From the IMG/VR virus record IMGVR_UViG_3300028887_000105: DNA of 64,000 bases. The stretch is one strand, 5' to 3'. This DNA comes from a virus (Duplodnaviria > Heunggongvirae > Uroviricota > Caudoviricetes). The position numbers and the translations under genes are program-made. Below the pieces are notes generated by a model. That model was not told the origin of the DNA and made no database searches. It was given only the letters and a program-made list of their open reading frames with translations. Shown here one piece after another: positions 1,979-57,824 of the stretch. The stretch's first letter is position 1; every line of letters begins with the position of its first letter.

Positions 1979-2191
1979 ATGACATTTTTTGAAATTTTAG
2001 AAAGATTTAAGAACGGCGAAAAGATTCGCAGAGAATGTTGGGATAAGAATCTGTGGATGGAGTTCAATAAGAACTCAAATTTAAGTCGTCTGTATTCAAA
2101 ACAAGATTTTGGCATTAAACTTCTTAGTATTGATATCCATTATACCACCGACGATATAATGGCTGACGATTGGTGTATTTACGAACAATAA
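1979..2191 (+). CDS. hypothetical protein
   Basis: track ORF begins at TTG 1973; first ATG at 1979. Confidence 0.45.
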   Translation: MTFFEILERFKNGEKIRRECWDKNLWMEFNKNSNLSRLYSKQDFGIKLLSIDIHYTTDDIMADDWCIYEQ

Positions 2192-6379: not shown

Positions 6380-6661
6380 ATGACACAAGAAGAAAAAAAG
6401 CAGTTGAAAGAATTCATAACATATTATGAAAATGAAAATTTTTATCTGAAAAAGAATAATAATATTTTTGATGGAGATGACAAGAATGTGACCAAGAAGG
6501 TTTTGGATTTTATTATGGCTAATGAGGCATTGATTTTAGATTATTTTTCATTCAATGTTTTTTTGAAACCATTAATTAAAAAACTAGGAAAGAAGTTATT
6601 TAATTATGGCATGATAACTGCTGATGATTGCTTGTATTATATAAATATTAGTTTGAGATGA
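6380..6661 (+). CDS. hypothetical protein (MTQEE start)
   Basis: 93-aa ORF. Confidence 0.45.
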   Translation: MTQEEKKQLKEFITYYENENFYLKKNNNIFDGDDKNVTKKVLDFIMANEALILDYFSFNVFLKPLIKKLGKKLFNYGMITADDCLYYINISLR

Positions 6662-7059
6662 CACAGGAAGAAAAAGATTTATTGTTAAAAGACCTTTGTG
6701 CAAGGTTGCCATATGGTGTAATATGTGATAGATTAGAAAAGCCAAAGAAACTATTAGGGGTTTATCCAACTAAAAAATTCCCATTGGAGTTTGATAATGG
6801 GGAATATATGCCAAGTGACTATGAGTTAGAGGACATTAAGCCATATCTTCGTCCAATGTCAAGTATGACTGAGGAAGAGAAAGAAGAGTATATTCATATT
6901 AAACAAGGGGAATGCAATGGCTGTGTTCTTACAGGAAAAGGTGACCCAAATACAGAATTTTTATTGGTAGATTTTTTCAATACACACCATATAGATTATC
7001 GTGGTTTGATACCTATGGGACTTGCTCTTCCTGCACCAGAAGGAATGTATAAAAATTAA
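6658..7059 (+). CDS. member of the DLCARLPYGV / YLRPMSSMTEEE / HHFDYRGLIxxGLALEAP paralog family (isolated copy)
   Basis: 133 aa; motifs shared with five tandem copies at 60035-62314. Confidence 0.6.
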   Translation: MTQEEKDLLLKDLCARLPYGVICDRLEKPKKLLGVYPTKKFPLEFDNGEYMPSDYELEDIKPYLRPMSSMTEEEKEEYIHIKQGECNGCVLTGKGDPNTEFLLVDFFNTHHIDYRGLIPMGLALPAPEGMYKN

Positions 7060-8585: not shown

Positions 8586-8763
8586 ATGAAGGGTAAAACT
8601 TTAATAATGAAAAACTGCGGAGAAAACTCCGAAGAATGGGAATATTTTGTTAAATCAAGAAACGCCCGTGGTAAAAAGGATTCATGGTGTAAAGCAGAAG
8701 CCAAACGCGCTTCTAGAAATATCCGTAGAAACAACAAAGTTAATTTAAACGATTATGGTAACT
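8586..8763 (+). CDS. small basic hypothetical protein
   Basis: 58-aa ORF in gap. Confidence 0.3.
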
Positions 8764-9111
8764 GAAGATTATGTTAGCCTTGAAACAGCAAAAGTGCTGA
8801 AAGAAAAAGGTTTTGATAATAATGATGCTCAAGCATGGTATAATCCAAATTCTGATGATCCAAATTATCCATCACCTGTTGGATTAAAAGGATGTTTATC
8901 GGCAATCACTCTTCAAATGGCTAGAAAGTGGTTAAAGAAAGAACATAATTTGTTCATTGCTCCCCAAATTAGTAAATATTGCCAATATTATTGTTCGGTA
9001 TTTGATTTAGAAAACGATGATTGGTGTTCTTGGGGTCTTGATGCAAAACTTTATGATACTGAAGAAGAAGCCATTGAAGAAACAATAAAAATCGCTTTAA
9101 AAAAAATTTAA
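8755..9111 (+). CDS. paralog family A protein (YVSxETAKxLKxxGFD ... LQMAxKWL..HNLFI)
   Basis: 118 aa; similar to ORFs at 48352 and 48783. Confidence 0.55.
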   Translation: MVTEDYVSLETAKVLKEKGFDNNDAQAWYNPNSDDPNYPSPVGLKGCLSAITLQMARKWLKKEHNLFIAPQISKYCQYYCSVFDLENDDWCSWGLDAKLYDTEEEAIEETIKIALKKI

Positions 9112-9886: not shown

Positions 9887-10618
9887 ATGGGAAGAGAATT
9901 AAGACGAGTGCCAATGGATTTTGATTGGCCGCAAGGACACATTTGGAAGGGTTATATCAATCCTTATCACGGAGTAAAATGCCCGTATTGTGAGCACGAT
10001 GGTTGCAGTAACGGTGAAACTGTAGAGGCCCGCAAGTACGTAGATACTTTCTATGGTTTTGCAATGGGATATCGATACATTCCACATCCTTACATTCCAG
10101 GGCGTGATTACTGTCCGTATGCTAAACCGTATAAGTGGGACCGTTGGGAATATGATTTCATTGTATCTAACCCAGAATTGTCAAAAAGTTTATTTGGTGA
10201 TCAAGAGGTACCAGCGTTTGAGGATTTGAGAGAGTATTTCTTGACCCATGAATACCCAGTTGGGGTACCTTGTGAGATTCAATGGGCACTTACAAAGGAA
10301 TACTGCAGACGTAACGGTTATGATTATCAATGTCCGCATTGTGATGATGGTGTCGTATACATCAACGACGAGATAAAGAAACTACACGATGAGTGGGAGC
10401 CAGTGGATCCACCTGCAGGTGACGGTTATCAGTTGTGGGAAACCACATCTGAAGGTAGCCCTAAGAGTCCAGTATTTGCTACCCTGGATGAACTTTGTGA
10501 GTGGTGTGAAACAAACGCAACCACGTTTGCTCATTTCAGAGCAACAAAGGAACAGTGGAAGAAAATGCTCGAAGATGACTTTGTTTACCACGAAGAAGGT
10601 AACGCAATATTTATTTGA
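9887..10618 (+). CDS. Cys/His-rich hypothetical protein (putative Zn-binding), locally elevated GC
   Basis: 243 aa; CPYCEHDGC and CPHCDDG motifs; visibly higher GC than flanks. Confidence 0.6.
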   Translation: MGRELRRVPMDFDWPQGHIWKGYINPYHGVKCPYCEHDGCSNGETVEARKYVDTFYGFAMGYRYIPHPYIPGRDYCPYAKPYKWDRWEYDFIVSNPELSKSLFGDQEVPAFEDLREYFLTHEYPVGVPCEIQWALTKEYCRRNGYDYQCPHCDDGVVYINDEIKKLHDEWEPVDPPAGDGYQLWETTSEGSPKSPVFATLDELCEWCETNATTFAHFRATKEQWKKMLEDDFVYHEEGNAIFI

Positions 10619-10803
10619 TCATTATGAAAAAAACAGAATGGATTGAAGAACATAATGAAGAAATGAGACAATACGATAAGTCAATGCTGTCACATGATGA
10701 TGGCACTGACTTACTCGCGGACTATGAAAGTAATCAATTCAAACATTGGGTTGAAGATAATAACGAAGATTGGTATGAACCAATGGGACATTTTAAAGAT
10801 TAA
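10615..10803 (+). CDS. hypothetical acidic protein
   Basis: 62-aa ORF, ATGA overlap. Confidence 0.45.
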   Translation: MIIMKKTEWIEEHNEEMRQYDKSMLSHDDGTDLLADYESNQFKHWVEDNNEDWYEPMGHFKD

Positions 10804-10808
10804 GAAGT

Positions 10809-11192
10809 ATGAAAAAAATAATGAAAAAACCTAACGACTTGAGTCGTTTAACTGTTAGTTATTTTACTGGCCAAGATGTAAAAAACAAATTTTATAGTCG
10901 GCAAATCGGATATGGTTCTTTTACGGTAGATAATATTCCACGGGAACTCAAAGACAAGAAGTGGGTTCCTGAGGATAATAAAAAATATGAATGTCATTGG
11001 TATTATACTAATCCAGCAGACCCTGCAGACCCAGGGGAAGATGTTTTGATATACATCGAAGAAATAGAAGAAGACGTAGCCGATAAAATGCGAACTGACT
11101 ATATATCGAAAATAGATAAAATAGTAAACAAATTATCATTAGATGATTTAAACGACTTATTAAAAGTTTTAAAAAGAAGATATTATATATGA
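10809..11192 (+). CDS. hypothetical protein
   Basis: 127-aa ORF. Confidence 0.5.
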   Translation: MKKIMKKPNDLSRLTVSYFTGQDVKNKFYSRQIGYGSFTVDNIPRELKDKKWVPEDNKKYECHWYYTNPADPADPGEDVLIYIEEIEEDVADKMRTDYISKIDKIVNKLSLDDLNDLLKVLKRRYYI

Positions 11193-11695
11193 GAATAGCA
11201 TTAGTAGCACACGATAGTAGAAAAAAGGAACTCGTTGAATGGGTTACCTATAATATGGAAGAGTTGAAGAAACACGAACTCTTCGCAACAGGTACAACTG
11301 GTAGATTACTCAAAGAAATTGAAGGTAAAATTAGATGGGAACCAACAGGAGGAAATGGTGATGGTTCAATATGGAGTAGATATTGCGAATATCCACTAGA
11401 GGATAAAGTTACCTGTTTGAAATCTGGACCGCTTGGTGGCGATCAGGAAATTGGTGCAATGATTGCAGAAGGAAAACTAGATGTACTTATTTTCTTCTGT
11501 GATAACCTTATTCAACAAGGGCACCAAAATGATGTATCTGCATTAACAAGACTTGCGTCGCTTTATAATATTGCATTTGCAACAAACAGAACCACTGCCG
11601 ATATGATCCTTACTTCATCATTATTCAACAATGAAAAATACAAGAAGGTTATGCCTAATTGTATCCAGGAATACATTTCACGAAGTGTTTTCTAA
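11189..11695 (+). CDS. mgsA: methylglyoxal synthase (MGS family) with ~25-aa loop insertion
   Basis: IALVAHD...ATGTTG...SGPLGGDQEIGA...GKLDVLIFF...GHQNDV..LTRLA...ATN..TAD aligns with bacterial MgsA incl. catalytic His/Asp positions. Confidence 0.85.
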   Translation: MRIALVAHDSRKKELVEWVTYNMEELKKHELFATGTTGRLLKEIEGKIRWEPTGGNGDGSIWSRYCEYPLEDKVTCLKSGPLGGDQEIGAMIAEGKLDVLIFFCDNLIQQGHQNDVSALTRLASLYNIAFATNRTTADMILTSSLFNNEKYKKVMPNCIQEYISRSVF

Positions 11696-16451: not shown

Positions 16452-17354
16452 ATGAAGTGTGAAGGAAAAATATTGATCATATTACAAGGTCCTCCTTGTT
16501 CTGGAAAGTCCACATGGGCAAAGGAATATCAGGAAAAGTATCCTGATACATTGGTTGCCAATCGTGATACTATTCGTTATACGCTTGGCGAAGGTAAGTA
16601 TACAATGGACAGAGAAGATGAGGTCACTGAGATTGAAATGGCCCAGGTAAAGGGTGCAATGGGTGCTGGTAGAACTGTTGTTATTGACGACACTAACCTT
16701 AATCCTAAGTATCTTAAGCCTTGGTTAGACCTTGCTGAAGAAAAAGGCTATGAGGTAAGATATGAGAAATTGTACATACCTTATGGCGAGGCAATGGAAC
16801 GTTCTAAGAAGCGTAAGGAAGAAGGTGGTCTTTACATATCAAAAGATGTAATGCAGCGTTTCTATAAGAAATACTTCAAGGAAGAATTCGAGAAGGAAAT
16901 GACTGATTATCGTGTATTCAATATGAATAAGTATGACGATAAATTACCTAATTGTGTTATATGCGATTTAGACGGTACTATTGCTATGCATACGGGCCGA
17001 ACACCATTCGAGTGGGACAGATTATTCGAAGACCAAATTGATTGGCGTATGAAGGATATTTTGCGTGCCCTGGCTGCTACTGGTGCTGAGATTATATTCT
17101 TGACTGGTAGACAGGAATCTGTAAGAGAGAAGACAGAGGAATGGCTTACAGCCAATTTCGGTTGGAAACATCAGTTGATTATGCGTCCAGACAGAGAGTT
17201 TGGTAAGGGTAATGCTGTTAAGAAGGAACTATACGAAAAGTACGTTAAGGGTAAGTATAATGTAATCTGTGTGTTTGATGACGCAAATTATTGCGTTGAT
17301 ATGTGGCGCAATGAGGGATTGTTAACATTACAGGTTCAAGATTCAGATTATTAA
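16452..17354 (+). CDS. pnk: polynucleotide 5'-kinase / 3'-phosphatase (T4 Pnk-like)
   Basis: N-terminal P-loop GPPCSGKSTWA and DTNLNP; C-terminal HAD phosphatase DLDGT, LTGRQE, FDDA..VDMWR; collinear with T4 Pnk. Confidence 0.9.
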   Translation: MKCEGKILIILQGPPCSGKSTWAKEYQEKYPDTLVANRDTIRYTLGEGKYTMDREDEVTEIEMAQVKGAMGAGRTVVIDDTNLNPKYLKPWLDLAEEKGYEVRYEKLYIPYGEAMERSKKRKEEGGLYISKDVMQRFYKKYFKEEFEKEMTDYRVFNMNKYDDKLPNCVICDLDGTIAMHTGRTPFEWDRLFEDQIDWRMKDILRALAATGAEIIFLTGRQESVREKTEEWLTANFGWKHQLIMRPDREFGKGNAVKKELYEKYVKGKYNVICVFDDANYCVDMWRNEGLLTLQVQDSDY

Positions 17355-18451: not shown

Positions 18452-18853
18452 ATGAGAAAGAAAAAAGAAGAAGTAACAGAAGAGTTGGTACAGGAAGTTA
18501 AGTATCCAACAGTAGAAGAATTGGTAATTGAGTGTATTAAACACGACATACCAGTAAACGGTGTTGACTATAATGGTAGAAACCTGGAGTATGAGATTGG
18601 CGGTTTCTCAAAGAGTGGTACTGGAAAACTTACCACTGATGAGGACGGTAATACAATCTTAGTTACCAGATATAATACAGTAAACGAAGTAAGATCCTTT
18701 GAGGATATTGCTGACGTTGCATATGATTGGTATTATAACTACCGAGACAGAGAACCATTTACACAGCCAGATTATAACTGGGCACCAATATTTGTTGAAA
18801 TGGGTCTAATTGAGGAACGAATTGTTAAGACCTACGTCCCTGTAGTTCAATGA
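18452..18853 (+). CDS. hypothetical protein
   Basis: 133-aa ORF. Confidence 0.55.
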   Translation: MRKKKEEVTEELVQEVKYPTVEELVIECIKHDIPVNGVDYNGRNLEYEIGGFSKSGTGKLTTDEDGNTILVTRYNTVNEVRSFEDIADVAYDWYYNYRDREPFTQPDYNWAPIFVEMGLIEERIVKTYVPVVQ

Positions 18854-18910
18854 ATAGAACGTGGGTTTCCTAAACCTAAGATCTGCGTTTGATTCGCAGC
18901 AGGGGTACTT

Positions 18911-19386: not shown

Positions 19387-20202
19387 ATGGAAGAGAAATT
19401 TTTAACTAGAGAAATTGTACAACAAAACGGCTGGGACGAACTAGAGGTTATAACAGCCGACATGCTTGATGGGTATACGGAAATTGGATATGCTGCTTTC
19501 GGTAATTGTTACAATATTACTTCAATTACTATTCCAAATAGCGTAACATATATTGGCAATTCGGCTTTCGCTGGTTGCGACAGTCTTACATCTGTTATTG
19601 TTCCAAACAGCGTCATAACCATTGGTGCGAGTGCTTTTAGGGGTTGTTCAAATCTTAAATCAATTAATATTCCAGATAGTACAAAAGAAATTGGAGAATA
19701 TGCTTTCCATAGATGCAAAAGTCTTACTTCAATTACCATTCCAGATAGTGTAACACGTATGGAAAGCGGCGCTTTCGATGGTTGCTCCAGCCTTACATCT
19801 GTCACTATTCCCAACAGTGTAACATACATGGGATATTGGGTTTTCAACCATTGTTCATTCAAAACCCCAAAAAGATATGATGAACAAGGTCGTTTAATTG
19901 CCTATAAGGGATTTAATGCCGACATGTCATGTCGTGGTTTTCAATATGAGGAGGGTGAAACTTATGAAATGGATGGTGAGATTAAATTATGCGAACGAGG
20001 CTTTCATGCGTGCACAAACCCACTAGATTGTTTGAATTTCTATGGTGGTGAAATATGCAAAGACGTTGTATACCACGAGGTTTACCTTGAAGATGTATCT
20101 GATGAGAGTGGTGATGATTCAAAGGTAGTTGCAAGGAAAATCACCATTGGGCACGAAATAACGCTATCCGAAATGGCAGATATTGCAAGTGGTAAAAAAT
20201 AA
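19387..20202 (+). CDS. BspA-type leucine-rich repeat protein with unique C-terminal domain
   Basis: five to six ~23-aa repeats IPxSVTxIGxxAFxxCxSLTS; no signal peptide. Confidence 0.75.
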   Translation: MEEKFLTREIVQQNGWDELEVITADMLDGYTEIGYAAFGNCYNITSITIPNSVTYIGNSAFAGCDSLTSVIVPNSVITIGASAFRGCSNLKSINIPDSTKEIGEYAFHRCKSLTSITIPDSVTRMESGAFDGCSSLTSVTIPNSVTYMGYWVFNHCSFKTPKRYDEQGRLIAYKGFNADMSCRGFQYEEGETYEMDGEIKLCERGFHACTNPLDCLNFYGGEICKDVVYHEVYLEDVSDESGDDSKVVARKITIGHEITLSEMADIASGKK

Positions 20203-25768: not shown

Positions 25769-27982
25769 ATGGATTACGAGAAAGCATATAAAGAATTAGA
25801 AACAAAAGCGAAGTCATTTATTGCTAGATGGGAAGGCATCGAAGCAATTAATTCTGAACTTGCATTGAAAGAACTAAAGGATATGTTCAATGAATTCACA
25901 GAGAGTGAGGATGAGAAAATAAGGAAAGAACTGATTTACTTTTTTCAAAATAGAAGAAAGCAACAAGAAGAAGATAAGTACTATCAAGGCGTAGAGATTC
26001 TTGACAGATGGATTTCTTGGCTTGAAAAGCAAGGTGAACAGAAACCTATCTCTAAATTTAAGGTCGGAGACCGCATATACGACAAAAGAGATAGTTACAA
26101 CAGAAATGTTATTAGAGAGGTAGGTAAGGATTACTACATAAATGCTTTTGGCCAGAAGATGGATATGGCTTATACCAATGCCAACTTTGAATTTCTAGAG
26201 CATTTAGAGGACGACCATATCGATAGTAAGCCTGCCGAGTGGAGTAAAGAGGATGAAGAAATATGTCAAGGAATAATAAACACACTTGAAGGCTTGTACG
26301 AATCTGCATCAAGCGACACGGTTAAGGCTTTATATGCTGCGAAAGCAGATTGGCTCAAACACCTCAAACCGAAACCGAGACCAGAGTGGAGTGAAGAGGA
26401 TGAAAGTGTAGATACTAGATTTGCGTTTTACACATACAAAGACGAACCTAATGTATTGTATTTGTCAAATGTTTTTGTTGAAGAATCTAGTCGAAACGAA
26501 GGTAAAGGTACCGAAATACTCAAAGTTGCCGAGCAAGTCGCTAAATCACTCAATAAGACTACAATTCGTCTGAAAGTTAAAAAGGAATCTGAAGCAAACG
26601 AGTGGTATTATAAGCATGGGTATTCACTTATACAATGTGAAGATGAATATAATTGGCTTGAAAAGAAAATAGAGCAGAAGCCTATTATGATTCAATGGAC
26701 TGGAGATAATCTCAAAGACGTAACTGAGTTTACTGGTTATTCTCCTAAATTCAGCGAGTGGTTTAAGAATTGGGAAGAATATGAAACTTATGTTCATTCT
26801 CACAACAATATCTTTAAGATGTTTAATGAAGATGGTTCTCACTACGAAGTTCCTGTCGGTGCATGGATTGTAAAAACTCCAGACGGACATAATGTTGCTT
26901 CAAAAGCAACTTATATTCAGAAGCCTGCTTCCAAGGTTGAACCAATGTTTAAGGTTGGTGATTGGATTATATCTGACAAGGCACATGAGGATTATCGTAT
27001 CTGTAAAATTATTGAGGTTGGTAACGGAAATTATAAAATAGAGTCGATACACGGATATTGTGGTTATAACGAATATAAGTATTTTGACAATATATATAGA
27101 CTTTGGACCATTGAGGATGCAAAACCAGGTGATGTACTTGTAGATAATCATCCGTTTATTTTTGAAAAAGTTGATACTTCTGGCCACTGTTATGCTTATT
27201 GCGGTTTAAATCCGTTTGATGAGTTTATGATAGAGTCTGAGGGAGAATCGGGAGAATGGACGTGGCATCCTAATGTACATCCTGCAACAAATGAACAGAT
27301 TAACTTGTTATTTCAGAAAATGGAAGAAGCAGGTTATGAGTGGGATTCCGAAAAGTTAAAGTTGGTCAAAATTGATCAAGAAGAAGAGGACACCCCAAAG
27401 TTTAAGGTAAAAAAAGGTGAATGGTACGTTTGTACTAATACTTTTGTATTAAAAGGTAAAATTATTGCAATTAAGGGACAAACATATCAATCAAAACAAC
27501 AAGATAATACTATAACTTGTGAAGATAATTGTCTTTTTATTGATAGACATGATGGTAAGGCATCAGACTATTTTCGTCTTTGGACTATCCAAGACGCAAA
27601 GCCTGGTGATATCCTTACTGACAAAGATGGTTGTACCTTCATCTTTAGAGAATTAGACGCTGATTTTGACGAAACTATGGCTATGGCTTATTGCGGCATT
27701 AACAGTGATGGTTATTTTATTCTTTGCGAAAAAGGTAGAGTTTGGACAGATCCAGAAGAGGTATATCCAGCAGATTCAGACGATCGTAATCATTTGTTTG
27801 ACAAAATGAGGGACGCTGGTTATGAATGGGATTCCACAAAACTTGAGTTAAAAGTGGTCAAACAGGAACCACCAGTTGTAAAAAATGAAAATAAAGAACG
27901 TTTTGAACGTATTGTTGGATTTCTAAGATATAAAGGGTTTGAAGATGATGCTGACTGGCTCGAATCATCGAAATTTCATTAA
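25769..27982 (+). CDS. mosaic protein: N-terminal helical domain (shared with 5183), GNAT acetyltransferase domain, KVG beta-domains and two ~95-aa tandem repeats
   Basis: GNAT motif A LSNVFVEESSRNEGKGTEIL (RxxGxG); repeats FRLWTIEDAKPGDVL...AGYEWDSEKLKL / FRLWTIQDAKPGDIL...AGYEWDSTKLEL; three FKVGD motifs. Confidence 0.7.
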   Translation: MDYEKAYKELETKAKSFIARWEGIEAINSELALKELKDMFNEFTESEDEKIRKELIYFFQNRRKQQEEDKYYQGVEILDRWISWLEKQGEQKPISKFKVGDRIYDKRDSYNRNVIREVGKDYYINAFGQKMDMAYTNANFEFLEHLEDDHIDSKPAEWSKEDEEICQGIINTLEGLYESASSDTVKALYAAKADWLKHLKPKPRPEWSEEDESVDTRFAFYTYKDEPNVLYLSNVFVEESSRNEGKGTEILKVAEQVAKSLNKTTIRLKVKKESEANEWYYKHGYSLIQCEDEYNWLEKKIEQKPIMIQWTGDNLKDVTEFTGYSPKFSEWFKNWEEYETYVHSHNNIFKMFNEDGSHYEVPVGAWIVKTPDGHNVASKATYIQKPASKVEPMFKVGDWIISDKAHEDYRICKIIEVGNGNYKIESIHGYCGYNEYKYFDNIYRLWTIEDAKPGDVLVDNHPFIFEKVDTSGHCYAYCGLNPFDEFMIESEGESGEWTWHPNVHPATNEQINLLFQKMEEAGYEWDSEKLKLVKIDQEEEDTPKFKVKKGEWYVCTNTFVLKGKIIAIKGQTYQSKQQDNTITCEDNCLFIDRHDGKASDYFRLWTIQDAKPGDILTDKDGCTFIFRELDADFDETMAMAYCGINSDGYFILCEKGRVWTDPEEVYPADSDDRNHLFDKMRDAGYEWDSTKLELKVVKQEPPVVKNENKERFERIVGFLRYKGFEDDADWLESSKFH

Positions 27983-35782: not shown

Positions 35783-36349
35783 ATGACAGTAATATACGGA
35801 AATCGTGGAGATATGGACACCCTTATGCTACCTAGCATATGGGAGAGATTAGACAATGTAAATGTTGTTGAAATCGGTCTTAGAACGTTTCACTTCGAAG
35901 ATAGAGTAGCAGAGGCAATAGCCAATGAGGATGATACTCTTATTCTTTGCGGCCACGGAACGTCCTGGGGCCTTCTACACCCCAATTTCCATACTGGACA
36001 GTATATTATTCACGAGAACAATTATCGTGACATACACGCAAGAAATTTGATATGTGTATGGTGCCATGCTGCTGACTTTGCTGAGAGATATCACGTAAAC
36101 GGTTTTTTTAGTTCAATGTTCATATCGAACGTTAATGAAGCACAAGAGCACCTTGGTAATGGTACAGACCTTACACAAGATCAGATTGGAGACTCGGAAT
36201 TGATATTCTGCAGAAGACTTAATGCACTTCTTAGGGATGGTACACCACTTAACGAGTGGGTGCCTACTTTGAAGAGTTTAATGAATGAAAATAATATGGT
36301 GGAGAGATATAATTATAATGGTTTAAAATTTTTTGAGAATTATGAATGA
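35783..36349 (+). CDS. hypothetical protein with His/Cys dyad arrangement (LILCGHG ... LICVWCHAAD), possible clan-CD-like peptidase fold
   Basis: 188 aa; spacing of GHG and hydrophobic-strand + Cys resembles caspase-like dyad; weak. Confidence 0.5.
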   Translation: MTVIYGNRGDMDTLMLPSIWERLDNVNVVEIGLRTFHFEDRVAEAIANEDDTLILCGHGTSWGLLHPNFHTGQYIIHENNYRDIHARNLICVWCHAADFAERYHVNGFFSSMFISNVNEAQEHLGNGTDLTQDQIGDSELIFCRRLNALLRDGTPLNEWVPTLKSLMNENNMVERYNYNGLKFFENYE

Positions 36350-37811
36350 GATTTTTACACAAAGTGAAAACATCAAGCACGAGTACTGTTGTACTATCGT
36401 GCGCATCGGCGAGATCAAGCCAATCGAGGGCAGGGATCGAATTGTACAGACACTGGTAAACGGTTTGTCTATGGTAATTCGTAAGGACCAGGTAAAAGAG
36501 GGTGACCTTATGATTTACGCGATGAACGAAACACAGTTGTCCGAGAAGTTCCTTGCTGCTAATAACCTGTATGCTATCGACTGTTACGAAAAGAACAGTA
36601 ATGCCCCAGAGGTGGGTCAATTACTATTCGACGGTAAGAACGATGAGGCAAAGGAACACGTTGGTTTCTTCAATAAGTATGGCCGAGTGAAATTGATTAG
36701 ACTTGGTGGTGTACCTTCATTCGGATACCTCTTCACTGTTAACGAACTTGCAAAGGTATATCCTGAGGTTCTTAATGTTAACCTTGAGGAACTGGTAGAC
36801 ACCGACTTCGATACCGTATGCGGTGAGGAATTTGTAAAGGTATATATGCCACCTGTAAAGGAAGCAACACCTCGTGGTTCAAAGGAAGCAAAAATGCAGC
36901 GTAAACTCGCTAAGTTTGATCGTATGCTTCCAGGCCAGTTTGCTTTCCACTATGAGACAAAGCAACTCGCAAGGTACATTTCTTACATCAAGCCTACCGA
37001 CGTGGTAACCATTTCTGTTAAGATGGACGGTACTTCATTTATTGTTGGTAATATCCTTGTTAAGTTCCCTAAGTGGGATGGTTTCTACAAGAAGATATTC
37101 CCATATCTTCCTAAGTTCCTACAATTCACTCGCGAGGATTATGATATTGTTTATTCTTCACGTAAGGTGATTATCAATAAGGATATTAATCCTAACAAGG
37201 GTGAAGGATGGGATGGTGGTTCTGTACAGAAGGCCATTACTGTAGTTGCCGATCTTATCAGGGACTATGTTCCTAAGGATATGACTATCTACGGTGAGAT
37301 TGTTGGTTATTACAATCAGACTAACAAGGCTATCCAAACTCGTGGTGGTAAGGATTATGACTATGGTTGCCCAGTGGGTACCAACAGGTTTATGCCTTAT
37401 CGAATTGTTACAAAGAACGAGGATGGTACAAATCACGAATGGAACGTTTGTGAGGTTTACGATTGGACTATCAATTTCATGAAGGAACATGAGGACCTTG
37501 CTAAGTACGTACAACCAATCGTTATCGTTTACCACGGTACGCTTGCTGACCTTTATCCACAACTTGACGTTGAGAATCATTGGCACGAGAATGTTCTTGA
37601 GGCTATGAAGAACGACAAGAAGACACTTGGTCTTGAGGTATATGAGCCAATGTGTAAGGATAAGGTATGGCGTGAAGGTGTAGTACTCCGTGTTGACGAC
37701 GATATGGTTAACGAAGCCTTCAAGTTGAAGAGTGTTAAATACTCTGAGAAGGAACGTGAGGATTACGACAAGGGTGTCATTGACCAGGAAGCAATGGAAG
37801 GATACCTTTAA
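36342..37811 (+). CDS. RNA ligase (covalent nucleotidyltransferase superfamily) with N-terminal OB-like domain
   Basis: track start 36333 is TTG, ATG at 36342; motif I ISVKMDGTS (KxDG), III TIYGEIVG, IV REGVVLRV (EGxxxR/K), V FKLKSVK; ~200-aa N-terminal OB-like domain as in Rnl5-type ligases; GC above background. Confidence 0.8.
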   Translation: MNEIFTQSENIKHEYCCTIVRIGEIKPIEGRDRIVQTLVNGLSMVIRKDQVKEGDLMIYAMNETQLSEKFLAANNLYAIDCYEKNSNAPEVGQLLFDGKNDEAKEHVGFFNKYGRVKLIRLGGVPSFGYLFTVNELAKVYPEVLNVNLEELVDTDFDTVCGEEFVKVYMPPVKEATPRGSKEAKMQRKLAKFDRMLPGQFAFHYETKQLARYISYIKPTDVVTISVKMDGTSFIVGNILVKFPKWDGFYKKIFPYLPKFLQFTREDYDIVYSSRKVIINKDINPNKGEGWDGGSVQKAITVVADLIRDYVPKDMTIYGEIVGYYNQTNKAIQTRGGKDYDYGCPVGTNRFMPYRIVTKNEDGTNHEWNVCEVYDWTINFMKEHEDLAKYVQPIVIVYHGTLADLYPQLDVENHWHENVLEAMKNDKKTLGLEVYEPMCKDKVWREGVVLRVDDDMVNEAFKLKSVKYSEKEREDYDKGVIDQEAMEGYL

Positions 37812-37885: not shown

Positions 37886-38413
37886 ATGGGATACGAAATT
37901 TCATTTAAACCTACAGAAGAGGCGATGGCTAAATTAAAGCCCTGGGGTGATTCATACCAATCATCAACCAAGAAACAACGAATTGAGTTGATTGCATATT
38001 GTATGAGAAAGTCGGATGAACCGACAATAAAAATATATGATAACATTAATTTCTATCTTAGATTTTTGAAAGAAAGTGTTAGAACCGACGAACGCGCATT
38101 TGCTTATAAAAGATGGAAAGAAAACGAAGAAAAAGAAATATGGTATTGCGGTTGGGAATTTTCCCGTCCTTCCAGTGTCGACATTGATGAGGTTATTGAA
38201 TTTACAACACAGGAATTAACAATTTTAACCGCTGTGGTTGAAACACCAGACTATTTTGAAAATAACGATAAATTCTACGAAAAGTATCGTGAAGTGATAA
38301 AAAGAATTGACGATTTCATTGACACAATGGAAGAAGTTACTATACATGAAATAATTGAAGAACTTGACGAATTTAAAGAGAAATACGAAGAAGAAAATGA
38401 TCAAGAAGTATAG
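37886..38413 (+). CDS. hypothetical acidic protein
   Basis: 175-aa ORF. Confidence 0.5.
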   Translation: MGYEISFKPTEEAMAKLKPWGDSYQSSTKKQRIELIAYCMRKSDEPTIKIYDNINFYLRFLKESVRTDERAFAYKRWKENEEKEIWYCGWEFSRPSSVDIDEVIEFTTQELTILTAVVETPDYFENNDKFYEKYREVIKRIDDFIDTMEEVTIHEIIEELDEFKEKYEEENDQEV

Positions 38414-39311
38414 AATAATAGGGGATATTCATGGTAGAACTAATTGGCATAAGTTAGTAGAACCATTTGACGAAGAAACAATGTACATCTTCGTCGGGGA
38501 TTATGTGGACCCATACTATCATCTGGAAGATGTTACATTTGATCAAATGTTTTCTGAAATGGAATCTATCTTCAAAATGAAACAGGAACATCCTGATAAT
38601 GTAATTATTCTGCTTGGTAACCACGATCTTCAATATATTATAAAATATGGAGAAACAAGTCGTTATGAAATAAGCATCAGTAAAAGGAACAAATTGTTCA
38701 ACTTTTTTGACGAGAATTTGAAATATACAGATGGTGTTGCGTATCAAATTAACAACAAATATCTTATCACGCACGCTGGTGTTACTAAAGAGTGGTATGA
38801 AACATACTTTGGCGAATTTAAAAAAGACACAACGCTTGAAGAAATAGTTAAAAACATAAATGAACTGTGGGAAAACAACAAGTCTGCATTTTATTTTTGT
38901 GGTAAATTCTCAGATTCTTACGGTGTATCGGAATCTCAAGGACCATTATGGATACGACCTGAAACATTATGGTATGCAAATTTATTTGGCTTTGACAGTG
39001 GTATAATTCAAATTGTTGGACATACACCATATGAATCAGATTTCCCTGGTTTGGCACCTAATGATGATAATCGTATAGCAACAATTGGCACCGTAAAAAT
39101 ACCAGCAGACAAAGAAGAAATCGAAAATGATTTATATTTTAATGACGGTACAAATATTTGTCAACGAATTGATAATAAACCATTACATGTAGATATTATA
39201 CTCGTTGATTGTTTACGTCGGGAAACCGCTTGTCTCGACATTGGTGCTGAAACTAACGGTTGGAAACAAGTATATTTTGGTGATGTTGAAAATAAAAAAA
39301 TTAAATGGTAA
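38397..39311 (+). CDS. PPP-family Ser/Thr-phosphatase-like metallophosphoesterase (lambda PPase / ApaH-like)
   Basis: GDIHGR, GDYVDPY (GDxVDRG-like), GNHD, HAGV, GHTP motif series. Confidence 0.8.
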   Translation: MIKKYRIIGDIHGRTNWHKLVEPFDEETMYIFVGDYVDPYYHLEDVTFDQMFSEMESIFKMKQEHPDNVIILLGNHDLQYIIKYGETSRYEISISKRNKLFNFFDENLKYTDGVAYQINNKYLITHAGVTKEWYETYFGEFKKDTTLEEIVKNINELWENNKSAFYFCGKFSDSYGVSESQGPLWIRPETLWYANLFGFDSGIIQIVGHTPYESDFPGLAPNDDNRIATIGTVKIPADKEEIENDLYFNDGTNICQRIDNKPLHVDIILVDCLRRETACLDIGAETNGWKQVYFGDVENKKIKW

Positions 39312-39925
39312 ATATGGAATATAATTATAAATTTACAAGTGGTAAGAATATTTGGTTTACATCTGATATTCATTTTAATCATAAAAACATAATTAAGTAC
39401 TGCCAACGTCCCTGGGAAACAGTAGACGAAATGAATGAGGCGTTAATTGCCAACTGGAATTCGGTTGTTAAAAAAGACGACACGGTATTTATACTCGGAG
39501 ACATTGGATTTGGAAGTGTTACTAAGACAGTAGAATTGGTGTCACGATTAAACGGGCATAAAATTCTATTACCTGGTAATCATGATAGGGAATTCATTCA
39601 TAAAGAAGAGGTTAGAGCGTTATTTGACGACATCCTACCATTGGCATATATTAAAATTGAAGAATTTCATATATATTTATGTCACTTCCCATTCTTATGT
39701 TTCGACGGTGCATACAGTGGTGAAAAAGCAACTTGGCAATTGTTTGGCCACTGCCACTCAAAGAAAGGTTCATTTGGATTGGATTCACAAAGATTGATTC
39801 ATTGTTATCCTACACAATATGATGTAGGTGTTGACAATAACAATTATTTTCCAATCTCATTTGAAACGGTTAAGGAAAAAATTTATGATCAGCAACAAAG
39901 TTTAAATTTGATTAGAGAATGTTAA
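39305..39925 (+). CDS. calcineurin-like metallophosphoesterase
   Basis: SDIHFNH, LGDIGFG, PGNHD, GHCH motifs. Confidence 0.75.
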   Translation: MVNMEYNYKFTSGKNIWFTSDIHFNHKNIIKYCQRPWETVDEMNEALIANWNSVVKKDDTVFILGDIGFGSVTKTVELVSRLNGHKILLPGNHDREFIHKEEVRALFDDILPLAYIKIEEFHIYLCHFPFLCFDGAYSGEKATWQLFGHCHSKKGSFGLDSQRLIHCYPTQYDVGVDNNNYFPISFETVKEKIYDQQQSLNLIREC

Positions 39926-41285: not shown

Positions 41286-42026
41286 ATGAAGATTTGCGCT
41301 ATATCTGATTTACACGGAACGCTCCCCAGTATTGGGGAGTGCGACGTGGTTTTCATTTGCGGTGATATCTTTCCGACCAGGATTGATACGATGACAAAAG
41401 AATGCCACGAGTGGTTCAACGGTCCATTTGCCGATTGGATCAATGAGTTACCTTGCAAACAAGTTTTTCTTATTGCTGGTAATCACGATTTTTATTTGGA
41501 AAGCGAATTGTCATACTTCGGTGAAAATGAACAACACTATACTGAATTAAGCCGAATTAAAAGAATTATTCGTGAAAACGAGAAAATGAAGGATAAACTT
41601 GTGTACCTTCAAGATGAAAGTTATACACTTGAAAACGGTATGAAAGTTTATGGTACACCTTGGTGTATTAGTCCTAAAGGATTTGCTTTCATTGATAGTT
41701 CAGGAAAACCATATGAAGAAATTCCAATGGATTGTGACATCTTGTTAGTACATCAGCCACCAAGGGTAGGTAAATTAGGGTGTTCAAATCCTAATACACA
41801 ATATGAAGTTAACTATGCAAGTAAATCACTTGCAAATGCAATTGCTGACAGACATATCAAGTATGTGTTCTGTGGGCATATTCATAGTGGAATTCACGGT
41901 GGTATATACGTAGATGATACAAAAGAAACATTATATCCGTTCTACAAGGATACTTTGTATTATAACGTATCAATTAAAGATGAAGAATATAAGGTTCGTT
42001 ATGAACCAACTTTTGTAATGATATAA
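41286..42026 (+). CDS. calcineurin-like metallophosphoesterase
   Basis: SDLHG, CGDIFP, AGNHDFY, HQPP, CGHIHSG motifs. Confidence 0.75.
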   Translation: MKICAISDLHGTLPSIGECDVVFICGDIFPTRIDTMTKECHEWFNGPFADWINELPCKQVFLIAGNHDFYLESELSYFGENEQHYTELSRIKRIIRENEKMKDKLVYLQDESYTLENGMKVYGTPWCISPKGFAFIDSSGKPYEEIPMDCDILLVHQPPRVGKLGCSNPNTQYEVNYASKSLANAIADRHIKYVFCGHIHSGIHGGIYVDDTKETLYPFYKDTLYYNVSIKDEEYKVRYEPTFVMI

Positions 42027-47990: not shown

Positions 47991-48362
47991 ATGACAAAGA
48001 CAGCAGTAATGCAATCGGATTTTAACATCACTGGAGAAATAGGTGGTGTTAAATATAAATATATAAAGATTCCATGGGTTGAACATCTAGAGATATATAA
48101 GTATTATCATGATAGTCAATCTGCGGAAAGAATTAATGAACGTGGTGGTTTTGGTGTAAGAGAAGCCGCTTATATGGGTTATAATCCTCTAGTTATTTGG
48201 GTAATTTATGATTACAGCGAAAAAGATAGTGATTGGACAAAAGTAGCACTCCTTTTTGATAAAGACTCTGATTTTAGATCATACCGTTACAGGGTTTTAA
48301 CTGAAGAAGAATACAAAAGTCTTGATATATTTGAAAAAATTAAAGATACGTATGATAATTGA
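47991..48362 (+). CDS. hypothetical protein
   Basis: 123-aa ORF. Confidence 0.5.
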   Translation: MTKTAVMQSDFNITGEIGGVKYKYIKIPWVEHLEIYKYYHDSQSAERINERGGFGVREAAYMGYNPLVIWVIYDYSEKDSDWTKVALLFDKDSDFRSYRYRVLTEEEYKSLDIFEKIKDTYDN

Positions 48363-48780
48363 AAATGAAAATTATGTTAGTTTTGAAACAGCAAAACTAT
48401 TGAAAGATAATGGATTTGATTGGTCTTGCCGAGCAAGATACGGAAGTGCTGGTTCTTTCTGTTATGAAAAATATCCGATTGAAGCAAGTGGATGTGAAAT
48501 GCACAATTGTATACTTTGTCCAACTCTTCAAATGGCTAAGAAATGGTTAGAAGAAGTTCACAATCTTTTCATTACTATTGAAATAAAAGGTGATCCACGA
48601 AAAGAGGATTTCATTTATTATAAATGGTCTGTTGCAAAATTTTGTTGTGTTAAAATTGAAAGAATTGATAACGGTTTAAACACACCAGAAGATTATTGGC
48701 TTGCACCTGAGGAAGAGGATGAAAAACCTGAATATGCGTGTGAAGCAGCAATTAAATATTGTCTTGAAAATTTGATTTGA
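48352..48780 (+). CDS. paralog family A protein
   Basis: MIIENENYVSFETAKLLKDNGFD ... LQMAKKWLEEVHNLFI ... ACEAAIKYCLENLI. Confidence 0.55.
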   Translation: MIIENENYVSFETAKLLKDNGFDWSCRARYGSAGSFCYEKYPIEASGCEMHNCILCPTLQMAKKWLEEVHNLFITIEIKGDPRKEDFIYYKWSVAKFCCVKIERIDNGLNTPEDYWLAPEEEDEKPEYACEAAIKYCLENLI

Positions 48781-48782
48781 TT

Positions 48783-49202
48783 ATGATAGAAGAAGCATAC
48801 GTTAGTTTTGAAGTGGCAAAACTTCTGAAAGAGAAGGGTTTTGATGTTGATACTCCAACAAGATATGCTATTGAAAAGGTAACAGAATCTTGGTATGATG
48901 ATTATCGGGAAAGAGTTGTTAAATTCGATTGGGATAGCGGTTATTTTTTAGGCATAAATGATATAAAACACGATATTAGTGGAGATACTATATCTGCTCC
49001 TACCCAACAGATGGCAATGCAATGGTTGAGAAAAATGGGTTGGTTTATTCATATTGATGTCATTCGAGAGGTGTCCTGCTGGACAGCAGATATTCAAGAT
49101 ATAAAGAATGATGTTGCCATTTATGCGGTTGAAAAAGAATTTCCCAACTATGAACAAGCATGTGAAGCAGCAATTAAATATTGCCTTGAAAATTTGATCT
49201 AA
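48783..49202 (+). CDS. paralog family A protein
   Basis: track start 48777 is TTG; ATG 48783; EEAYVSFEVAKLLKEKGFD ... identical C-terminus ACEAAIKYCLENLI. Confidence 0.55.
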   Translation: MIEEAYVSFEVAKLLKEKGFDVDTPTRYAIEKVTESWYDDYRERVVKFDWDSGYFLGINDIKHDISGDTISAPTQQMAMQWLRKMGWFIHIDVIREVSCWTADIQDIKNDVAIYAVEKEFPNYEQACEAAIKYCLENLI

Positions 49203-49204
49203 TT

Positions 49205-49402
49205 ATGACTAAGGAAGATAGAGTAGAATTACAAAAGGCTGTATCTAATTTTCTTTACTCGTTTTCGAGCGAGGAAACACGAATGTATGCGCCGTGGGCA
49301 TTTGATTCAACTGGTTTTCAAAAGCCACTTTCAATTGCTGAATTTGCGGCTACATGGATGGAAAGACGTTTGTTAAACAAAATTAAAAATAAAATAAAAT
49401 GA
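49205..49402 (+). CDS. hypothetical protein
   Basis: 65-aa ORF. Confidence 0.4.
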   Translation: MTKEDRVELQKAVSNFLYSFSSEETRMYAPWAFDSTGFQKPLSIAEFAATWMERRLLNKIKNKIK

Positions 49403-50223
49403 AATTTAAAAGTCTAGAAGAAAAGTGTTTGTATTACAGAGGTTTAACTGATTATAAACTTCTGCCTAACAGTAATATTCTTGTCATGCTTGACGGTAAA
49501 AACTTTAGTCGTCTCATCAAGAATAACTTTAAGAAACCGTTTGATGATGATTTTATCAGAATGATGAACAACACGGCTAAGTTCCTGTGTGAAAACGTAC
49601 AGGGATGTAAGTTTGCATATGTTCAGTCTGATGAGATCTCATTGCTCATTACCGATTATGACACACCAGAGACCGACTTGCTGTTTGGTGGTAGACTTTG
49701 CAAGATTGAATCTATTCTTGCTTCCCTGGCTACGTCAGAGTTCAATCGCCAATTCATTAAGTATCACTTGTTTGAGAAGAGAGAAAATTGGTCTGGTGTT
49801 GGTTTCGCAGGCCTTTCTGATCAACTTGATAAAATGAAGATGGCTCAGTTTGACTGCAAGGCTTGGACTGTACCTAATTTTAACGATGCATTTGCTTGGT
49901 TCCTATATCGTCAGATTGACTGTATCCGTAACTCAAAGCAGCAGACTGCTCAAACCTATGTTCCACACAAAGAACTGGTTAAAAAAGATACTGATCAACA
50001 AATTGCAATTTGTAGAGAAAAAACCGATATTGATTGGAATGATTTTGCCAACCAATACAAATATGGTAGATTTGTTTACAAGGTAGAAAAGGAACTTACT
50101 ACTACTCTTCCTGACGGTAAGGAAATCACTTATTTCAGAAACAAATTCGAGGCTGTACCAGCGTTTGAATTGACGAAGGAAGGAAATAAAGACAAGTTTA
50201 TCAATCTTATTTTCGAATCATGA
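49399..50223 (+). CDS. Thg1-like 3'-5' nucleotidyltransferase (tRNA-His guanylyltransferase family, TLP)
   Basis: ILVMLDGKNFSRL...KPFDDDFIRMMNNTAKFL...FAYVQSDEISLLI aligns with Thg1 VVRLDGRNFHRF...KPND...AYGQSDEYSFVF incl. catalytic Asp residues. Confidence 0.85.
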   Translation: MKFKSLEEKCLYYRGLTDYKLLPNSNILVMLDGKNFSRLIKNNFKKPFDDDFIRMMNNTAKFLCENVQGCKFAYVQSDEISLLITDYDTPETDLLFGGRLCKIESILASLATSEFNRQFIKYHLFEKRENWSGVGFAGLSDQLDKMKMAQFDCKAWTVPNFNDAFAWFLYRQIDCIRNSKQQTAQTYVPHKELVKKDTDQQIAICREKTDIDWNDFANQYKYGRFVYKVEKELTTTLPDGKEITYFRNKFEAVPAFELTKEGNKDKFINLIFES

Positions 50224-56728: not shown

Positions 56729-57163
56729 ATGAAAACAAGTGAACTTCAAAACGAAACCAGTTCTTTGATAAAAGAACATAGCAAATTGTATAAATTAATT
56801 GACGAAAAAGAAGAAGCCATTACAGTTAAAGCAAGGGAATTACTAAATGAATTGCGTAAACTGGATAATTGGGAGGTAATGATTGACGAGTGTAAAGACC
56901 ACTATGAACGATTTCCTGACGAATTCTTTGATTGGTGTCATGTAGAATTTGAAAAAAATAAGGTTTATTTTGTGAAGAATTATAGTGATGACGATGACGA
57001 TTATTATGTTCTTACTATTGATTTGTCTAAGCCTTTAGAAGATCAAATAAAGGAAAAACAAGAAAAGATAAAAAAAGACGAGGAAAAAGAAAAAGAAAAA
57101 ATTAAGGCAAAAGAACTTGCCGAATTAAACCGTTTAAAAGAAAAATATGAAACATTACGATAG
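56729..57163 (+). CDS. coiled-coil hypothetical protein
   Basis: 144 aa; KEKEKIKAKELAELNRLKEKYE. Confidence 0.5.
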   Translation: MKTSELQNETSSLIKEHSKLYKLIDEKEEAITVKARELLNELRKLDNWEVMIDECKDHYERFPDEFFDWCHVEFEKNKVYFVKNYSDDDDDYYVLTIDLSKPLEDQIKEKQEKIKKDEEKEKEKIKAKELAELNRLKEKYETLR

Positions 57164-57824
57164 TATACCGAGAATACAAGATGATGGCACTTTGAAAGGT
57201 GAAATGGTTGTAGGTTATAACAAACTGGATGGCCAAAACTTTTGTGTAGCATATAATTGTAGAAAGAAAACCTGGGGTCCTTACGGTTCCAGGACAGTGA
57301 CTGTAGATGAAAACTCTGAACAGTTTGGAGAAACTGTAAAGTTCTTTAACAACTCTGATTACAAGGAGATTCTGGAAAGAATTGTGAAGGAGTTTTCTGG
57401 AAAGGGTGACGTGTTTAACGGTGTTGATGAAATCACATTCATATTTGAATGGTATGGATGGAATTCATTTGCTGGGAAGCATAAAGAAGGTGATACGATG
57501 AACCTGGCTCTTATTGATGTATTCCTCAAAAAGAGAGGTTATATTGAACCAAAGAATTATGAAATGTGTTTCAGATATTGTGGTATTGAACTTCCCGATC
57601 TAATTTATTCAGGGCCGCTAAATAGCGAAATTATTGAAAAAGTTCAGAACAACGACTGGACACAACCTGATTGTTGGAATCCACACGTTCACGAAGGTGT
57701 TGTATTTAAAAGAACAACATTGCTTAAGGGTCAGCGTAGACCGTCTGTAAAGGTAAAAACAAAGTGGTGGATAGATAAACTTCATTCAATGTATAGTGAA
57801 GAGGAATGTAAAAAACTTGAGTAA
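57147..57824 (+). CDS. Rnl2-like adenylyltransferase-domain RNA ligase (stand-alone NTase domain)
   Basis: motif I YNKLDGQN (KxDG), III ITFIFEWYG, IV HEGVVFKR (EGxxxK), V VKVKTK; size/layout like T4 Rnl2 N-terminal domain. Confidence 0.75.
   Translation: MKHYDSIPRIQDDGTLKGEMVVGYNKLDGQNFCVAYNCRKKTWGPYGSRTVTVDENSEQFGETVKFFNNSDYKEILERIVKEFSGKGDVFNGVDEITFIFEWYGWNSFAGKHKEGDTMNLALIDVFLKKRGYIEPKNYEMCFRYCGIELPDLIYSGPLNSEIIEKVQNNDWTQPDCWNPHVHEGVVFKRTTLLKGQRRPSVKVKTKWWIDKLHSMYSEEECKKLE

Follow-up and report, generated by a model that had tools for sequence, protein, structure and literature searches.

A Bacteroidales-type methylglyoxal synthase with a lengthened predicted hairpin, carried by a contig of a probable jumbo phage

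Methylglyoxal synthase (MGS) stands at a branch point of glycolysis, where ATP yield is traded for a rapid release of phosphate, and its product is a toxic electrophile. Enzymes of central carbon and phosphate metabolism are found among the auxiliary metabolic genes (AMGs) of phages, the cyanophage genes talC, pstS and phoH being examples. The MGS-like domains of CarB/CPS1 and PurH are not known to have the catalytic residues of MGS. The enzyme of Escherichia coli is inhibited by inorganic phosphate (Pi) and activated by dihydroxyacetone phosphate (DHAP), and it is active when sugar phosphates accumulate and Pi drops (PMC3412212); its allosteric signalling involves a salt bridge between Asp20 and Arg150, together with Pro92, Arg107 and Val111 (PMC4133812). 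In viruses, mgsA has been named as an AMG in the AMG table of a study of Lake Baikal, on a viral scaffold of 120 kb (PMC8066274). Apart from this entry, we found no published description or test of a phage MGS in the searchable literature, including the gut or jumbo-phage papers that we examined. Here, we examine a stretch of 64,000 nucleotides (hereafter the window) of the IMG/VR virus record IMGVR_UViG_3300028887_000105 (Caudoviricetes), which carries an MGS gene with an insertion in one of its loops. This window covers positions ~52,967-116,966 of a metagenomic contig of 253,946 bp (ENA ERZ27257203, k141_2048293). Our best explanation, to which we give as a whole a rough probability of 0.6, is that of a competent MGS of Bacteroidales type, carried by a jumbo phage as an AMG of metabolic overflow.

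The gene is an ATG-initiated open reading frame (ORF) of 168 amino acids plus stop, which was also found by the independent gene call of the source assembly, and its product belongs to the MGS family by all the criteria of sequence and structure that we tested. The NCBIfam equivalog model NF003559 matches it with 171.9 bits (E 6.3e-51, for a cutoff of 84) and the Pfam model PF02142 with 46.1 bits (for a cutoff of 24.1); with the older TIGR00160 model, the score is 138.2, short of the cutoff of 146.9, since the insertion divides the match in two. In the PDB, the sequence matched 11 solved MGS structures, the best being that of Thermotoga maritima (1vmd, E 4.2e-41), with that of E. coli (1b93) at E 6.5e-30. 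The protein was also modelled as a single chain with AlphaFold2 from an alignment of 87 sequences (mean pLDDT 84.8). When this model was compared to the PDB with Foldseek, the first 26 ranks were all occupied by MGS (E 3e-12 to 3e-8, target-normalised TM-score 0.73-0.86); the MGS-like domain of carbamoyl-phosphate synthetase appeared first at rank 27 (E 7e-4, 15-19% identity), and PurH followed with E 1.5e-2. A previous reading of this DNA, made from the sequence only, had proposed a genuine MGS collinear with bacterial MgsA, and had named a fold closer to CarB or PurH as one outcome that would speak against it. The predicted fold falls on the side of MGS, and an MGS-like domain of CarB/CPS or PurH is ruled out by the fold search, the family models, the stand-alone ORF of 168 amino acids and the presence of the catalytic residues.

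These catalytic residues are all found at their expected positions (E. coli numbering in brackets): His8 (His19), Asp9 (Asp20), Asp85 (Asp71, the base), Asp105 (Asp91), His112 (His98) and Asp115 (Asp101), and the six of them are invariant across 87 clade members. The phosphate-binding residues Lys12, Thr34/36/37 and Ser79/Gly80 (Lys23, Thr45/47/48, Ser65 and Gly66) are also present, and they are invariant or nearly so among the same members. The three motifs that the sequence-only reading had pointed out hold their ground in the alignment to E. coli MGS, AHD carrying His8 and Asp9, GGDQ carrying Asp85, and GHQNDV carrying His112 and Asp115. The core around them contains the motifs FFCDN and QGHQND of the Bacteroidales type. 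If the established chemistry of MGS is transferred to this protein, Asp85 would take a proton from C3 of DHAP, while His112, His8, Asp9, Asp105 and Asp115 would stabilise the ene-diol intermediate; the phosphate, held by Lys12, Thr34/36/37 and Ser79/Gly80, would then be eliminated to yield methylglyoxal and Pi.

Of the residues that convey the allosteric signal in E. coli, some are kept and others replaced. Asp9, Arg165 and Arg121 (E. coli Arg107) are invariant in the 87 clade members, and Arg165 is likely the equivalent of E. coli Arg150, which forms the inter-subunit salt bridge to Asp20 (Asp9 here), as judged from an alignment of the tails made by eye (EYISRSVF versus RYLADRLK). E. coli Val111 is replaced by Leu125, as in all Bacteroidales MGS. 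Outside the loop, the substitutions that are specific to the clade are few and peripheral (E17, Y21, E25, C76, V99, F146 and K152), and their comparison brought out no phage-specific change at catalytic or allosteric sites. Because the residues are conserved and the core evolves with a dN/dS of 0.01-0.05, the conversion of DHAP to methylglyoxal and Pi can be expected of this protein, and we consider it highly probable that an active MGS is carried in a phage genome. As a separate observation, the catalytic loop FFCDNLIQQGHQND (residues 101-120, positions 11489-11548) is the part of the model with the lowest confidence (pLDDT ~69), and the equivalent residues 94-100 in the model of a relative, P0111, fall below 50. 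This loop of Bacteroidales type, in which Cys, Asn, Gly and Gln replace Trp90, Pro92, Pro97 and Asp99 of E. coli, is without a solved structure.

The most visible particularity of the protein is its insertion. HMMER splits the match to the contiguous 1vmd and 1b93 sequences into residues 2-45 and 73-159, so that 27 residues (46-72) stand opposite 2, for a net gain of 25 amino acids, which is the size that had been proposed from the letters. When the size of the loop is taken as the number of residues between the motifs TGTTG and SGPxGGD, as we do hereafter, it amounts to 40 amino acids in the window protein versus 15 in E. coli. The string first given for the insert was mostly right, except for its last four residues (KVTC), which form strand beta3, and the insert proper is approximately G46-D72. 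It is modelled as a beta-hairpin located between helix alpha2 and strand beta3, with strands predicted at 48-56 and 59-66 (positions 11330-11386) and a GGNGDG turn, and it is followed in the model by a conserved CEYPLED linker leading into strand beta3 (74-77). According to the topology of the parallel sheet, the hairpin would lie on the sheet edge opposite the active-site strand ends of its own subunit. None of the solved MGS structures among the sequence and fold matches in the PDB has this hairpin.

The insertion is not confined to this gene: the chromosomal MGS of Bacteroidales have a shorter predicted hairpin at the same alpha2-beta3 site, with 9-18 extra residues. In 73 Bacteroidales genomes of GTDB, the loop is 24-33 amino acids long, with a mode of 26 and a single case of 39. 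The model of P0111, in which the loop has 26 amino acids, contains a predicted mini-hairpin (46-48/51-53, pLDDT ~90) at the same location. Only ~9-14 of the 25 extra residues of the window protein thus go beyond what the chromosomal enzymes have, and its insertion is a lengthened form of a hairpin already found in the host enzymes. In the viral contigs of IMG/VR, the loop ranges from 28 to 55 amino acids, the exception being a distant match (L140) with a loop of E. coli type of 15 amino acids.

The selective regime of the hairpin is far from that of the core. In comparisons of the window protein with two relatives, L144 and L081, the core (residues 79-143) shows 95% amino acid identity and a pN/pS of 0.05, while the hairpin (residues 45-66) shows 41-50% identity and a pN/pS of 0.34-0.51, with synonymous sites that are saturated in both pairs (pS 0.7-0.9). 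Between two alleles of a second group of phages, found in the human gut, residues 67-139 are identical at the protein level (dN/dS 0.01), whereas 22 of the 25 loop residues 42-66 differ (dN/dS 0.95). At equal core identity (85-95%), loop lengths differ by 5-6 amino acids in phage pairs versus 0.2-1.3 in bacterial pairs, and loop identity is also lower in the phage pairs. In particular, the closest relatives of the window protein, P0006 (89% core identity) and P0025 (86%, with the first 37 residues identical), have unrelated loops of other lengths. The simplest reading is that the enzymatic activity would be strongly selected in phages and the hairpin weakly constrained, and the hairpin is most simply seen as a tolerated, indel-prone decoration of the surface. 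No other part of the protein is under so little constraint among the phage copies, and a new function for the hairpin is accordingly unsupported. A targeted hypervariation of the loop by a diversity-generating retroelement was also considered and set aside: a blastn search of positions 11300-11430 against the whole window gave no second copy (the best other match being of 29 nt, E 0.001), and no reverse transcriptase is present in the Pfam tables of the window and flanks examined. A search of IMG/VR for the loop DNA of the window did not find it there.

At E <= 1e-10, a protein search brought up 7,101 homologs; among the 120 best, the full-length identity is 65-78%, and many lie on contigs of 250-412 kb. 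Relatives on phage-like contigs of 140-412 kb amount to 63 loci of IMG/VR and to over 100 clusters of proteins at 90% identity. The sequence-only reading had called an MGS on a phage unusual. This is right for the reference collections, as PHROGs has no MGS family, BFVD gives no match at E <= 1e-3, and INPHARED has no annotated MGS record, its tblastn matches being unannotated fragments of less than 45% identity, probably of Firmicutes type or bacterial; it is not right for the uncultured large phages of Bacteroidales, in which the gene recurs. The four relatives that we looked at in their context (contigs of 178-412 kb) lie in arrays of small unknown ORFs on one strand, along with Thy1, Thg1, NADAR, LuxS, T4_Y16D, HNH, helicase and primase genes. 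At least two groups of phages are involved, that of the window, mostly on contigs of 140-412 kb, and that of the human gut, on contigs of 88-178 kb (L093-L143). Among the genes common to the window and 19 related loci, MGS is the best conserved, with 55-77% identity versus mostly 30-50% for the other shared ORFs.

The closest cellular matches in GTDB belong to Prevotellaceae, Paludibacteraceae and other Bacteroidales (59-67% identity). With the loop left out, the core of the window protein finds at most 89% identity in the phage clade, 80% in the IMG/VR loci, 78% in the best bacterium and 50% in E. coli. In Segatella bryantii DSM 11371, mgsA has ftsZ and amtB for neighbours, and the L002 copy is surrounded by radA and SpoU-methylase genes; because of these housekeeping neighbours, both loci are truly bacterial. 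In a neighbour-joining tree built on 137 highly conserved core columns, the window protein is surrounded by a clade of 126 sequences devoid of bacteria, which includes 11 loci from IMG/VR or verified as phage by their context, and the human-gut group is free of bacteria in 52 of 60 bootstrap replicates. These core sequences point to at least two lineages that would have passed from host to phage. The GC and GC3 contents of the gene match those of the locus of each phage: the window gene has 36.7% GC for 35.0% in the window, and its relatives follow the same rule (31.4/32.0 in L102, 28.9/29.8 in L114), which disfavours a recent capture or a chimeric assembly. Thus, the phage MGS was probably acquired long ago from a Prevotella-like host lineage of Bacteroidales, and has since adopted the base composition of phages; it is now kept by a large set of uncultured phages of the gut and the rumen.

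The loci of these relatives also deserve a few observations of their own. A LuxS gene (autoinducer-2/S-ribosylhomocysteine lyase) is found 7-10 kb from MGS in relatives of this phage (L150 and L151). In a 272-kb relative (L148), a TnpB/Cas12f-like gene (OrfB_IS605) adjoins MGS on the opposite strand, and in a 362-kb relative (L144), a GH2-containing protein of 1,887 amino acids is encoded 2.3 kb downstream of MGS.

The window itself has the architecture of a large phage genome, in line with the phage origin stated from the sequence. Its + strand carries 152 ORFs of ~130 amino acids on average, which cover 94% of its length and of which ~90% have no Pfam hit; the GC content, taken over 2 kb at a time, is 30-41%, and a single tRNA, tRNA-Arg(CCT), is encoded. 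The phage-type families include a T4-type polynucleotide kinase (phrog_505, 3.6e-78) and Thg1 (phrog_4717, 2.8e-53), accompanied by two RNA ligases, three metallophosphoesterases, a dUTPase-like protein, NUDIX, a nucleoside deoxyribosyltransferase and T4_Y16D. Just outside the window, the same contig carries YopX, PurA, NadE with NAPRTase, GmrSD_N and GH43 genes, the NadE/NAPRTase pair resembling the NAD+ module of gastrointestinal jumbo phages (PMC11662467). On either side of MGS, the phage-type array on one strand extends over at least 20 kb, and no cellular housekeeping gene was found in the 84 kb of the contig inspected. A megablast of the 8 kb around MGS against INPHARED gave no match, hence no close relative among cultured phages. 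All this makes it very probable that the window belongs to an accessory or early part of the genome of an uncultured jumbo phage. The features of the locus and of its surroundings are collected in Table 1.

Table 1. Coordinates of the MGS gene, its regions and other features of the contig and of related loci (positions of the window unless a locus is named)
Feature	Position	Strand	Basis or remark
Complete MGS ORF	11189..11695	+	ORF list, NF003559, PF02142, PDB sequence and fold matches
Residues 1-44, beta1-alpha1-beta2-alpha2, with His8, Asp9, Lys12 and the T34-G-T-T-G38 phosphate-binding turn	11189..11320	+	Alignment, 87 clade members, AlphaFold2
Residues 45-73, insertion	11321..11407	+	HMMER gap; AlphaFold2 pLDDT 78-91
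Residues 79-143, catalytic core, with Ser79/Gly80, Asp85, Asp105, His112, Asp115, Arg121	11423..11617	+	Invariant columns
Residues 144-168, C-terminal tail and helix, with Arg165	11618..11692	+	Arg165 invariant in 87; helix 157-163 in model
Upstream ORF, 127 aa, no family	10809..11192	+	Stop overlaps MGS start (ATGA)
PurA (adenylosuccinate synthase)	L154 7008-8093		Same contig, outside window
NAD synthase and nicotinate phosphoribosyltransferase; GmrSD_N-domain protein; GH43 glycoside hydrolase	L155 16052-18145; 13634-14254; 19725-20333		Same contig, outside window
RNA-repair/tRNA toolkit	16452-17354, 36333-37811, 57147-57824, 49399-50223, 38355-39311, 39305-39925, 41286-42026, 18836-18908		Scattered
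ORF with weak Tad2-like match, 70 aa	~1979-2191		PF11195
Six paralogous ORFs, ~120-150 aa	60035-62314 and 6658-7059		Five in tandem
Second small paralog family	8755-9111, 48322-48780, 48777-49202		Common to L085, L092, L148
737-aa protein with GNAT domain	25769-27982		Low-identity counterparts in related phage loci
271-aa LRR_5/DUF7666 protein	19387-20202		Low-identity counterparts in related phage loci
LuxS genes of relatives	L150 1-211; L151 2459-2965		
TnpB/Cas12f-like gene of a relative	L148 10768-11937	-	
GH2-containing protein of a relative	L144 12819-18482		

The ORF directly upstream of MGS has no Pfam, PHROG or credible PADLOC match. It has a single homolog among the relatives (47% identity), which is found directly downstream of MGS in L083 (~10504-10900), that is, in the reversed order, and its link with MGS is weak. 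It is also the sole hint of a conserved operon partner, as tblastn of the 152 window ORFs against the 19 related loci gave no syntenic neighbour. Two other associations were tried and rejected: the "dehydrogenase" near MGS in L102, a candidate companion for methylglyoxal, is IMPDH/GMP-reductase-like, and membership in a defence system finds no PADLOC match for MGS and noise-level matches only for its neighbour.

Elsewhere in the window, the scattered RNA-repair and tRNA toolkit is made of the T4-type polynucleotide kinase-phosphatase, the two RNA ligases, the Thg1 tRNA-His guanylyltransferase, the three metallophosphoesterases and the tRNA-Arg(CCT), and it suggests a counter to host defences that cleave tRNAs. 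The Tad2-like match is to a family of anti-Thoeris sponges, and the corresponding ORF is a possible anti-defence gene. The six paralogous ORFs (MTQEEKELLLKDLC.RLPYGV...HFDYRGLIEKGLALEAP.DMYK) all match one ORF in L092 and L148 and have no Pfam hit, and another small family of paralogs is defined by VSFETAKLLKEKGFD...AIKYCLENLI. In the 737-aa protein, the central GNAT acetyltransferase domain is the only recognisable one.

Several observations weigh against the explanation given at the outset. No structural hallmark (capsid, terminase or portal) was found in the 84 kb inspected, and because of this the phage identity is argued from the gene content, the architecture and the relatives in IMG/VR. 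The activity of the enzyme is likewise argued from conservation, and Pro92, which belongs to the second allosteric path of E. coli, is replaced by an asparagine throughout the Bacteroidales, Asn106 in the window protein, so the regulation by Pi may differ. The bacteria-free clade of at least 100 members was kept in 17 of 60 bootstrap replicates, which is a weak support, and since L088 and L091 of IMG/VR also fall elsewhere in the tree, a clean monophyly of the phage MGS is not supported. The host has its own mgsA, and what would be gained from a second copy is not evident; the rumen and the gut are generally phosphate-rich, which weakens a rationale of phosphate scarcity; and methylglyoxal damages DNA and protein, so that it would hurt the phage too. 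In the window and the loci examined, MGS is accompanied by no glyoxalase, other methylglyoxal-handling or pho-regulon gene, and the Pfam tables of the window contain no aldo-keto reductase, D-LDH or pst/pho gene. The first of these points, together with the 75-78% core identity to the MgsA of Bacteroidales and with the phage-labelled matches of INPHARED, which as unannotated fragments are maybe bacterial, could be taken to mean that the contig is bacterial, a bacterial island or a misassembly, with an ordinary chromosomal mgsA. We hold this to be very improbable: the dense array of small one-strand ORFs, the phage families (the phrog_505 kinase, the phrog_4717 Thg1, T4_Y16D, YopX and the RNA ligases), the GC content of the gene and the relatives on IMG/VR contigs, whose sizes cluster at 250-412 kb, all speak for a phage, and the neighbours are not the housekeeping genes (ftsZ, amtB, radA) seen at the bacterial loci.

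If the gene is that of a phage, its role has to be weighed as well. During infection, the growth of the host halts, the uptake of sugar may go on, and a genome of 254 kb needs many replications; in such a context, a phage MGS would hold the triose-phosphate overflow open, free Pi from sugar phosphates and avert a stall of upper glycolysis. That this release was the selected function is a tentative proposal, to which we give a little less than even odds. The enzyme might instead act as a toxin, an early product whose methylglyoxal would fill the cell and thereby arrest the growth and the macromolecular synthesis of the host, or poison cells nearby or phages that co-infect the host. Its position within a long same-strand array of small ORFs, such as early or host-takeover regions usually have, and the fact that no detoxification gene accompanies it would fit such a role, as would the toxicity of methylglyoxal, which inhibits the growth of E. 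coli at sub-millimolar levels (PMC3412212) and kills the Prevotella ruminicola that produces it under glucose excess (Russell 1993, as cited in PMC3412212). The phage enzyme, however, looks as regulated as that of the host, because it keeps the residues of phosphate regulation (Asp9, Arg165 and Arg121) and shows no phage-specific change around its active site; it has no secretion or targeting feature, and the damage to phage DNA and proteins counts here too, so that we find this role unlikely. Less likely still is that the hairpin would be a phage-specific functional module, which would block co-assembly with host MgsA, alter the allostery of the hexamer to escape inhibition by Pi, or bind a host or phage partner; the phage copy would then owe its usefulness to the insertion. 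The loops of the phage clade are indeed longer (median 36 amino acids, 26-51) than those of bacterial genomes (median 26, 24-39), the hairpin of the window's subclade, which is predicted with confidence, keeps a GGx(x)[E/D]G turn and alternating aromatics, and the pN/pS of the hairpin leaves room for some constraint. Yet the loops of the closest relatives are unrelated to it and of other lengths, the clade members P0110 and P0111 have a short loop of 26 amino acids, dN/dS is ~1 in the second phage lineage, and no more than 40 of the 141 loops of the clade contain the GG..EG motif; this pattern of lengths, dN/dS and motif favours relaxed constraint over a conserved binding function. It is equally doubtful that the hairpin turns the phage enzyme into a deregulated generator of methylglyoxal for host takeover or competition between phages, with its rapid change reflecting an arms race.

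We therefore come back to the overflow of triose phosphates and Pi. Prevotella is a dominant genus of the rumen and the gut, and many uncultured Bacteroidales phages of 140-412 kb keep an MGS under very strong purifying selection. Because the gene is so widely kept, and is the best conserved of the genes shared near the locus, the manipulation of this overflow may be a recurrent strategy of gut phages, one that is apparently undescribed in the searchable literature and absent from the protein families of reference phages. The chemistry of the enzyme is ordinary, and its loop is inherited and weakly constrained; the variants of hairpin length nevertheless form a natural series on an otherwise nearly invariant enzyme.

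Compared with known systems, the window protein is closest to the MgsA of Bacteroidales (Segatella bryantii DSM 11371, Xylanibacter ruminicola, Segatella copri and metagenome-assembled genomes of Paludibacteraceae), with 59-67% full-length and at most 78% core identity. It has in common with them the short N-terminus, the C-terminal Arg, the FFCDN and QGHQND motifs (FFWDP and VPHDPD in E. coli) and the alpha2-beta3 insert that ends in an aromatic-Pro-Leu/Phe...Val-Thr pattern. The predicted hairpin is of 9+8 residues here versus 3+3 in the form with a 26-aa loop, and the bacterial genes lie among housekeeping genes whereas that of the window lies in a jumbo-phage array. The MgsA of E. coli (1B93, 1EGH, 1IK4) and TM1185 of T. 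maritima (1VMD) have the same predicted fold (Foldseek E ~1e-11, target-normalised TM-score 0.77-0.81) and 42-49% identity, with conserved catalytic and phosphate-binding residues and also, if Arg165 is the equivalent of Arg150, the Asp20/Arg150 pair; unlike the E. coli enzyme, the window protein lacks an N-terminal extension of 11 residues and has Asn106 for Pro92, Cys104 for Trp90 and Gly111 for Pro97. The MGS-like domains of CarB/CPS1 and PurH share the superfamily fold, PF02142 covering both, but they are distant from the window protein (E 7e-4 to 1.5e-2, 14-19% identity) and sit in large proteins with regulatory or other roles, while the window protein stands alone. As for AMGs, the gene has several of the features expected of them: it is flanked on both sides by viral-type genes, and it is an intact host-derived enzyme in a lytic-looking phage genome, with a composition matched to the phage and under strong purifying selection. 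It differs from the usual ones in that its product is a toxic electrophile and its clade is restricted to Bacteroidales phages. Phage-borne MGS does not amount to a system of a new kind; it is an apparently undescribed but widespread member of a well-known enzyme family.

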